Shown here: positions 10,645-13,272 of the stretch, one piece after another
Numbering within the stretch: position 1 is the first letter of the stretch
Layout of the letters: each line of letters starts with the position of its first letter
NCBI RefSeq assembly: GCF_055900595.2
Contig: NZ_CM148325.1
Strand: one strand, 5' to 3'
DNA: 64,000 nt
Notes under the pieces: generated by a model
Databases searched by the model: none
What the model was told of the DNA's origin: nothing
What the model saw: the letters and a program-made list of their open reading frames with translations, nothing else
Made by a program: the position numbers and the translations under genes

Positions 10645-13272
10645 ATGAGCGACCTTGCGAGAGAAATTACACCGGTCAACATTGAGGAAGAGCTGAAGAG
10701 CTCCTATCTGGATTATGCGATGTCGGTCATTGTTGGCCGTGCGCTGCCGGATGTCCGAGATGGCCTGAAGCCGGTACACCGTCGCGTACTTTACGCCATG
10801 AACGTACTAGGCAATGACTGGAACAAAGCCTATAAAAAATCTGCCCGTGTCGTTGGTGACGTAATCGGTAAATACCATCCCCATGGTGACTTGGCGGTTT
10901 ATGACACGATCGTCCGTATGGCGCAGCCATTCTCGCTGCGTTACATGTTGGTAGACGGTCAGGGTAACTTCGGTTCCATCGACGGCGACTCTGCGGCGGC
11001 AATGCGTTATACGGAAATCCGTCTGGCGAAAATTGCCCATGAACTGATGGCCGATCTCGAAAAAGAGACGGTCGATTTCGTTGATAACTATGACGGCACG
11101 GAAAAAATTCCGGACGTCATGCCGACCAAAATTCCTAACCTGCTGGTGAACGGTTCTTCCGGTATCGCCGTAGGTATGGCAACCAACATCCCGCCACACA
11201 ACCTGACGGAAGTCATCAACGGTTGTCTGGCGTATATCGATGATGAAGACATCAGCATTGAAGGGCTGATGGAACACATCCCGGGGCCGGACTTCCCGAC
11301 GGCGGCAATCATTAACGGTCGTCGCGGTATCGAAGAAGCTTACCGTACCGGTCGCGGCAAGGTATATATCCGCGCCCGTGCGGAAGTGGAAGTTGACGCC
11401 AAAACCGGGCGTGAAACCATTATCGTCCACGAAATTCCGTATCAGGTGAACAAAGCGCGCCTGATCGAAAAAATTGCGGAACTGGTAAAAGAAAAACGCG
11501 TGGAAGGCATCAGCGCGCTGCGTGACGAGTCTGACAAAGACGGTATGCGCATCGTGATTGAAGTCAAACGCGATGCGGTCGGTGAAGTGGTGCTCAACAA
11601 CCTCTACTCCCAGACCCAGTTGCAGGTTTCTTTCGGTATTAACATGGTGGCATTGCACCATGGTCAGCCGAAGATCATGAACCTGAAAGACATCATCGCT
11701 GCGTTTGTTCGTCACCGCCGTGAAGTGGTGACTCGTCGTACTATTTTCGAGCTGCGTAAAGCTCGCGACCGTGCTCATATCCTTGAAGCATTAGCCGTGG
11801 CGCTGGCAAACATCGATCCGATTATCGAACTGATCCGTCATGCGCCGACGCCTGCAGAAGCGAAAACGGCGCTGGTTGCTAATCCGTGGCAGCTGGGCAA
11901 CGTTGCCGCGATGCTGGAACGTGCGGGCGATGATGCTGCGCGTCCGGAATGGCTGGAGCCAGAGTTCGGCGTGCGTGACGGTCTGTACTACCTGACCGAA
12001 CAGCAAGCTCAGGCAATTCTGGATCTGCGTCTGCAGAAACTGACCGGCCTTGAGCACGAAAAACTGCTCGATGAATACAAAGAGCTGCTGGATCAGATCG
12101 CGGAACTGTTGCGTATTCTTGGTAGCGCCGATCGTCTGATGGAAGTGATCCGCGAAGAGCTGGAGCTGGTTCGTGAACAGTTCGGTGACAAACGTCGTAC
12201 TGAAATCACTGCCAACAGCGCAGACATCAACCTGGAAGATCTGATTACTCAGGAAGATGTGGTAGTGACGCTCTCTCACCAGGGCTACGTTAAGTACCAG
12301 CCGCTTTCTGAATACGAAGCGCAGCGTCGTGGCGGGAAAGGTAAATCTGCCGCACGTATCAAAGAAGAAGACTTTATCGACCGACTGCTGGTGGCGAATA
12401 CTCACGATCATATCCTGTGCTTCTCCAGCCGTGGTCGCGTCTATTCGATGAAAGTCTACCAGTTACCGGAAGCGACTCGTGGCGCGCGTGGTCGTCCGAT
12501 CGTCAACCTGCTGCCGCTGGAACAGGACGAACGTATCACCGCGATCCTGCCGGTGACTGAGTTTGAAGAAGGTGTGAAAGTCTTCATGGCGACCGCTAAC
12601 GGTACTGTGAAGAAAACCGTCCTCACCGAGTTCAACCGTCTGCGTACCGCCGGTAAAGTGGCGATCAAACTGGTTGACGGCGATGAGCTGATCGGCGTTG
12701 ACCTGACCAGCGGCGAAGACGAAGTAATGCTGTTCTCCGCTGAAGGTAAAGTGGTGCGCTTTAAAGAGTCTTCTGTCCGTGCGATGGGCTGCAACACCAC
12801 CGGTGTTCGCGGTATTCGCTTAGGTGAAGGCGATAAAGTCGTCTCTCTGATCGTGCCTCGTGGCGATGGTGCAATCCTCACCGCAACGCAAAATGGTTAC
12901 GGTAAACGTACTGCGGTAGCGGAATACCCGACTAAGTCGCGTGCGACGAAAGGGGTTATCTCCATCAAGGTTACCGAACGTAACGGTTTAGTGGTTGGCG
13001 CGGTGCAGGTAGATGACTGCGACCAGATCATGATGATCACCGATGCCGGTACGCTGGTACGTACTCGCGTTTCTGAAATCAGCATCGTGGGCCGTAACAC
13101 CCAGGGCGTGATCCTTATCCGTACTGCGGAAGATGAAAACGTGGTGGGTCTGCAACGTGTTGCTGAACCGGTTGACGAGGAAGATCTGGATACCATCGAC
13201 GGCAGTGCTGCGGAAGGGGACGATGAAATCGCTCCGGAAGTGGACGTTGACGACGAGCCAGAAGAAGAATAA
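10645..13272 (+). CDS. gyrA: DNA gyrase subunit A; codon 83 encodes Leu (S83L quinolone-resistance allele)
   Basis: 875-aa [50 protein letters not shown]...; QRDR reads [11 protein letters not shown], with codon 83 = TTG at 10891-10893 and Asp87 = GAC unchanged. Acidic C-terminal tail. Confidence 0.98.

Follow-up and report, generated by a model that had tools for sequence, protein, structure and literature searches.

A gyrA Ser83Leu quinolone-resistance allele on the chromosome of an Escherichia cryptic clade I, ST485-like strain, with possible recurrence in its lineage

Replacement of serine 83 by leucine in the A subunit of DNA gyrase (S83L) is an already known and very common textbook resistance allele of Escherichia coli, clinically meaningful but ordinary. 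Of 195 resistant clinical isolates, 191 had it; it beats competing gyrA alleles under ciprofloxacin and is ordinarily the first step (PMC5400412). With purified E. coli gyrase carrying GyrA-S83L, ciprofloxacin-induced DNA cleavage is strongly reduced; the results support a water-metal-ion bridge resting on Ser83 and Asp87, and the authors concluded that the leucine acts by steric hindrance (PMC9917921). Strain ATCC 25922 has a ciprofloxacin MIC of 0.008 mg/L; with S83L alone, the MIC of an isogenic derivative is 0.25 mg/L, and it reaches 2 mg/L when S83L is combined with D87N and ParC S80R in the same background (PMC5635686). For field isolates with S83L alone and lacking a plasmid-borne gene, the nalidixic acid MIC was 64-128 mg/L, and ciprofloxacin resistance was not seen (PMC3051878). 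A further study used S83L only together with qnrS1 and provides no single-mutant MIC (PMC5516121).

The locus considered here lies in a window of 64,000 nucleotides (the whole stretch of DNA analysed) from contig NZ_CM148325.1 of RefSeq assembly GCF_055900595.2. Three described systems are its closest counterparts. The first is the E. coli GyrA S83L protein WP_001281218.1, annotated in strains Z0117EC0005 and AST85: all 875 residues are the same, the codon change is likewise TCG to TTG and Asp87 is intact. There is no protein difference, and the distinguishing property of the window is its nucleotide background, a rare allele of clade I with 97.2% identity to that of K-12. The second is the high-level fluoroquinolone-resistant genotype S83L + D87N + ParC S80I, which is dominant in clinical isolates (PMC5400412). 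It has S83L and the disruption of the bridge in common with the window, whereas the window retains Asp87, and the ciprofloxacin MIC to be expected from it is about 0.25 mg/L, against at least 2 mg/L for the high-level genotype; parC lies outside the window. The third is the wild-type GyrA of clade I ST485, WP_001281242.1 (e.g. in E200086), where the gyrA nucleotide allele, the flanks and the gene order are as in the window. Unlike the window, this system has C and not T at nucleotide 248 of the gene, an IS3-family insertion in yfaL and an intact ompC (the latter read in E200086).

Within the window, the gene and the positions that matter for quinolone susceptibility are the following (all on the plus strand):

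10645..13272, plus strand: gyrA coding sequence, DNA gyrase subunit A, 875 amino acids and stop (open reading frame, NCBIfam and K-12 comparison)
10843..10962, plus strand: quinolone resistance-determining region (QRDR), codons 67-106, coordinates counted from the start of the reading frame
10891..10893, plus strand: codon 83, TTG (Leu), located as 10645 + 82 x 3; the mutated base is 10892, C in the wild type and T here
10903..10905, plus strand: codon 87, GAC (Asp), unaltered, the second-step gyrA mutation being absent (sequence and K-12 comparison)
11008..11010, plus strand: codon 122, TAT, the catalytic tyrosine, intact (sequence)

Codons 67-106 are the established extent of the QRDR, and Tyr122 is the established catalytic tyrosine of GyrA. 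The full-length protein scores 1308.2 bits in a profile search against the NCBIfam gyrA equivalog TIGR01063 (cutoff 877), and 577.8 bits against the Gram-negative parC model, under its cutoff of 628.9. The gene is flanked by ubiG and yfaA, as is the arrangement in E. coli, and the window is collinear with the chromosomes of Z0117EC0005, E200086, AST85 and K-12. At the nucleotide level, its gyrA shows 100% identity to the gene annotated in E. coli Z0117EC0005 and in AST85.

Direct reading of positions 10888-10905 gives GAC TTG GCG GTT TAT GAC, in frame within the 875-residue reading frame. In an ungapped comparison with gyrA of K-12 MG1655 there are 73 nucleotide differences (97.2% identity), 72 of which are synonymous; the single nonsynonymous one is C to T at nucleotide 248 (window 10892), which converts TCG to TTG and Ser83 to Leu. 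Alignment of the protein with PDB 6rks_A (E. coli GyrA) is gap-free over residues 1-875, and its lone mismatch is residue 83. S83L is thus the sole amino-acid change relative to K-12 and 6rks_A, both within the QRDR and in the whole 875-residue protein. Since the Tyr122 codon is intact and the protein equals that of K-12 outside residue 83, the GyrA enzyme is expected to be functional.

The gyrA S83L observation is confirmed. A sequence-only reading had assigned the gene to gyrA, an identification on which the TIGR01063 score, the gap-free 6rks_A alignment and the K-12 comparison agree. It had taken residue 83 for the QRDR serine position, where both protein alignments indeed place their only mismatch, and had read codon 83 as TTG for a wild-type TCG, which the C-to-T difference from K-12 at nucleotide 248 bears out. 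Asp87 is unchanged, as it had stated, and the single-mutation gyrA genotype that it proposed holds over all 875 residues. The range that it gave, 10840-10960, is practically that of the QRDR.

The chromosomal background of this allele is unusual. Across gyrA, identity to the window reaches 99% or more in just 11 of 5425 complete "E. coli" genomes, and the flanks behave alike: over the whole window the number is 8-11 of 5425, depending on the segment. In most complete genomes the identity is 95-99% for gyrA and the segments downstream of it, and 90-95% for the segment upstream. Over positions 1-38 kb, eight genomes match the window almost base for base: Z0117EC0005 (dog, Korea), AST85 (human, Japan) and six stool isolates of the GEMS collection (Mali, Kenya, India, Bangladesh, Gambia): E200086, E400634, E500002, E600003, 100117 and 100248. 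Five of the six GEMS isolates (100248 is missing) are included in a genome announcement, where all five are ST485 and OND:H45, were isolated in 2007-2008 and are typed as cryptic clade I (four isolates) or "Cryptic" (100117) (PMC13064198). The next-nearest genomes to the window, EC42405 and 2013C-4282, are assigned to clade I in PMC10100065. Judged by these relationships, the source strain is a member of Escherichia cryptic clade I, ST485-like, and not a typical E. coli.

These relatives also provide the ancestral state of codon 83. All six GEMS genomes have TCG, and nucleotide 248 is their only difference from the gyrA of the window; for E200086 the identity apart from this base extends 200 bp on either side of the gene (3028 bp compared). 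The two more distant clade I genomes, EC42405 and 2013C-4282, have TCG as well. The independent complete genomes Z0117EC0005 and AST85 carry a TTG allele identical to that of the window. The presence of TCG in six genomes of the lineage on an otherwise identical gyrA implies that Ser is ancestral and that Leu83 is derived, by a single-base change on the lineage's own allele. The idea that Leu83 is native to the divergent lineage, or that the allele is foreign, was rejected given TCG in the six otherwise identical alleles and in the two more distant clade I genomes.

The divergence of the allele from that of K-12 and its rarity among complete genomes might prompt the view that cryptic clade I carries Leu83 as a neutral polymorphism without bearing on drug susceptibility. 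This view has next to no probability: serine is found in related genomes with the same or nearby alleles (the six GEMS strains, EC42405 and 2013C-4282), the protein is otherwise that of K-12 GyrA, for which the effect of S83L was measured on the enzyme (PMC9917921), and the effect on the MIC was measured in an isogenic ATCC 25922 background (PMC5635686). The ancestral-state result effectively refutes the neutral reading.

The same near-identity raises the question of whether T at 10892 could be a sequencing or assembly error in a strain that is truly TCG wild type, because the closest wild-type relatives differ in gyrA by just one base and the base is read from an assembly. The window and its closest wild-type relative differ at about 10 sites in 38 kb, and the computed chance that one of these is exactly the change at nucleotide 248 is ~1e-4; the match to S83L is thus not a chance hit. 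A random error falling on the most strongly selected resistance base has the same order of probability (~1e-4, given ~10 differences in 38 kb), and two complete genomes of the lineage, sequenced independently, share this exact TTG allele. An error is, in consequence, very improbable. It is highly probable that the gyrA of the window is a genuine chromosomal target-site quinolone-resistance allele, produced by one C-to-T change giving Ser83Leu, and most likely a de novo mutation under quinolone selection.

The mechanism that we infer for this strain from the literature is the classical one. The C-to-T transition at 10892 converts Ser83 to Leu in helix alpha-4 of GyrA. In the wild type, Ser83 and Asp87 anchor a water-Mg2+ bridge that holds the C3/C4 keto-acid of the quinolone in the gyrase-DNA cleavage complex. 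The bulky Leu83 would take away one anchor of the bridge and sterically hinder the drug, so that cleavage complexes would be poorly stabilised by quinolones, while the gyrase would be otherwise unaltered. S83L is the classical first step towards full fluoroquinolone resistance. The phenotype expected from the published data is nalidixic-acid resistance with a ciprofloxacin MIC raised about 30-fold, to about the clinical breakpoint. The phenotype predicted in the sequence-only reading, nalidixic-acid resistance with reduced fluoroquinolone susceptibility, is well founded on isogenic and field data, from which it may be extended to the present strain. The term single-step genotype refers here to gyrA only: parC, parE, gyrB, marR/acrR and the plasmid-borne determinants qnr, aac(6')-Ib-cr, qepA and oqxAB lie outside the 64-kb window. 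Since parC, parE, gyrB, efflux regulators and plasmids are outside it, the overall resistance level may be higher or lower. Alignment to related chromosomes revealed no inserted DNA across the 64-kb window, that is, no window-specific insertion.

Codon-83 states were counted in a collection of 5426 complete genomes with 31-mers built so that each 28-base seed spans nucleotide 248. TTG was found in 2302 genomes (~42%) and TCG in 3069, and 55 match neither 31-mer. The description of S83L in the sequence-only reading as the most common first-step mutation agrees with this frequency and with the clinical series cited above. Using 31-mers across codons 83-87 (TTG and GAC), S83L with Asp87 kept was found in 412 genomes with GTT at codon 85 and in a further 72 with GTC. 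The gyrA genotype of the window, S83L with intact Asp87, is therefore carried by at least 484 genomes, or ~21% of the 2302 S83L carriers; the figure is a lower bound because the search requires an exact 28-base word and misses alleles with other nearby polymorphisms. As a separate observation, a record labelled as a plasmid contains one of the 5431 gyrA matches in the genome collection, and this match has TTG at codon 83. Both codon-83 states also occur on a second related gyrA allele, distinguished from that of the window by A828S and T850S: 2013C-4282 has TCG, and 2020CK-00188 and WL297 have TTG. It represents a parallel S83L event on a different background.

Whether the Leu83 of the window shares its origin with that of Z0117EC0005 and AST85 can be addressed with a marker located upstream of gyrA:

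5872-9636, plus strand: yfaL, AIDA-I family autotransporter adhesin, intact in the window (comparison with relatives)

In E200086, AST85 and Z0117EC0005, 41 bp of yfaL (window 9167-9207) have given way to a 1257-bp IS3-family element that splits the gene. The element and its junctions are identical among the three genomes in a base-by-base comparison. In the other five close relatives, the match covers the same 11860-bp span, with an IS3 transposase annotated under it. The window has the 41 bp intact and a complete yfaL, and so cannot derive from the IS-bearing group. This group holds both codon-83 states: TCG in E200086, the sole TCG genome whose insertion was compared, and TTG in AST85 and Z0117EC0005. 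The two derived characters are therefore in conflict, since the IS insertion unites E200086, AST85 and Z0117EC0005, and Leu83 unites the window, AST85 and Z0117EC0005. Among the window and these three relatives, position 10892 is the single site in 38 kb with such a conflicting pattern. The simplest reading of the conflict is that S83L arose at least twice in the lineage, the alternative being recombination. It seems about an even bet that S83L had two or more independent origins in this narrow clade I ST485-like lineage, one in the IS-bearing branch (AST85 and Z0117EC0005) and one in the present IS-free strain, here alongside a nonsense mutation in ompC.

The alternative would have Leu83 imported by homologous recombination from an Escherichia strain already carrying S83L, most plausibly a related one; the function would be the same and the origin different. 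Recombination is active in this region. About 210 SNPs relative to close relatives (AST85) are packed into two divergent tracts, at ~45000-53500 (eco/nap/ccmA-B) and ~58000-63000 (ccmH/narP/yejO/tRNA-Pro), against about 9 in the first 38 kb. The complete-genome collection contains no close donor for either tract, that is, no match of at least 99% identity, the best reaching 98.9% (46.0-53.5 kb) and 98.0% (58.5-63 kb). The segments at 45-53.5 kb and 58-63 kb were acquired by recombination from a donor outside the sampled genomes. At gyrA itself, a candidate donor exists in 2020CK-00188 (TTG), which does not differ from the window between 200 bp upstream of the gene and nucleotide 303; with a donor of this type, a short tract ending before nucleotide 304 would be invisible in the compared stretch. 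Against import, the gyrA of the window is identical to the wild-type allele of the lineage at every other base of 3028 bp, and a K-12-like donor would need a tract of less than 150 bp, between nucleotides 105 and 255. Moreover, C to T at codon 83 is a recurrent spontaneous mutation, accounting for 25-28% of in-vitro gyrA mutants (PMC5400412). Import is consequently an unlikely origin, and mutation of the lineage's own allele remains the favoured one.

The ompC mutation that accompanies S83L in the window, and that the sequence-only reading of gyrA leaves unmentioned, is the following:

37314-38441, plus strand: ompC, with codon 82 changed from CAG to TAG (mutated base 37557)

Codon 82 is TAG in the window and CAG in AST85 and E200086, the two relatives read at this site. 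The OmpC of the window is predicted to be truncated after 81 residues. A 31-mer carrying the TAG is found in one of 5426 complete genomes, that of poultry strain E7, which is unrelated and has an ompC annotated with "internal stop". Loss of the OmpC porin could modify antibiotic permeability alongside gyrA S83L.

Besides the ompC change, eight SNPs are seen in the window alone when it is compared with three aligned relatives (4874, 5718, 8821, 16241, 21351, 21723, 27762 and 29594). Four are nonsynonymous (yfaL A984T, alpha-2-macroglobulin R164L, atoC L146I and atoS P143T), three are synonymous and one is intergenic. At the start of the window, in positions 235-576, relatives annotate "incomplete" fragments of a LysR-family regulator and a hypothetical protein, and an MFS transporter and a LysR regulator are annotated in the matches of other E. 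coli (O157:H7, O55:H7) to the upstream segment. Positions 235-576 look like the remnant of a deletion. Rfam and tRNA scans of the window returned the following elements:

33149-33225: naRNA4 (REP-like) element after rcsC (Rfam)
36887-36980, minus strand: MicF, upstream of ompC (Rfam)
45020-45326: naRNA4 (REP-like), three tandem copies after mqo (Rfam)
62376-62452, minus strand: tRNA-Pro(GGG) (ARAGORN)

These are ordinary E. coli features, and the two scans revealed nothing in the window that bears on gyrA S83L.

Annotation and surveillance should record the window as gyrA S83L, with nalidixic-acid resistance and a ciprofloxacin susceptibility lowered to about the breakpoint to be expected. A gyrA S83L strain of this kind would be one or two mutations (parC S80I, gyrA D87N) short of full fluoroquinolone resistance. 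No new insight into gyrase or into quinolone resistance comes from the finding. It makes one mildly useful epidemiological point, in that quinolone resistance of chromosomal origin occurs in cryptic clade I; the main text of the principal clade I population study contains neither "quinolone" nor "gyrA" (PMC10100065). The additions are modest only: the clade I ST485-like background, the probable recurrence of S83L in the lineage and the accompanying ompC nonsense mutation. Recurrence, if true, would mean stepwise adaptation to antibiotics in a lineage that has been flagged as an emerging intestinal pathogen.
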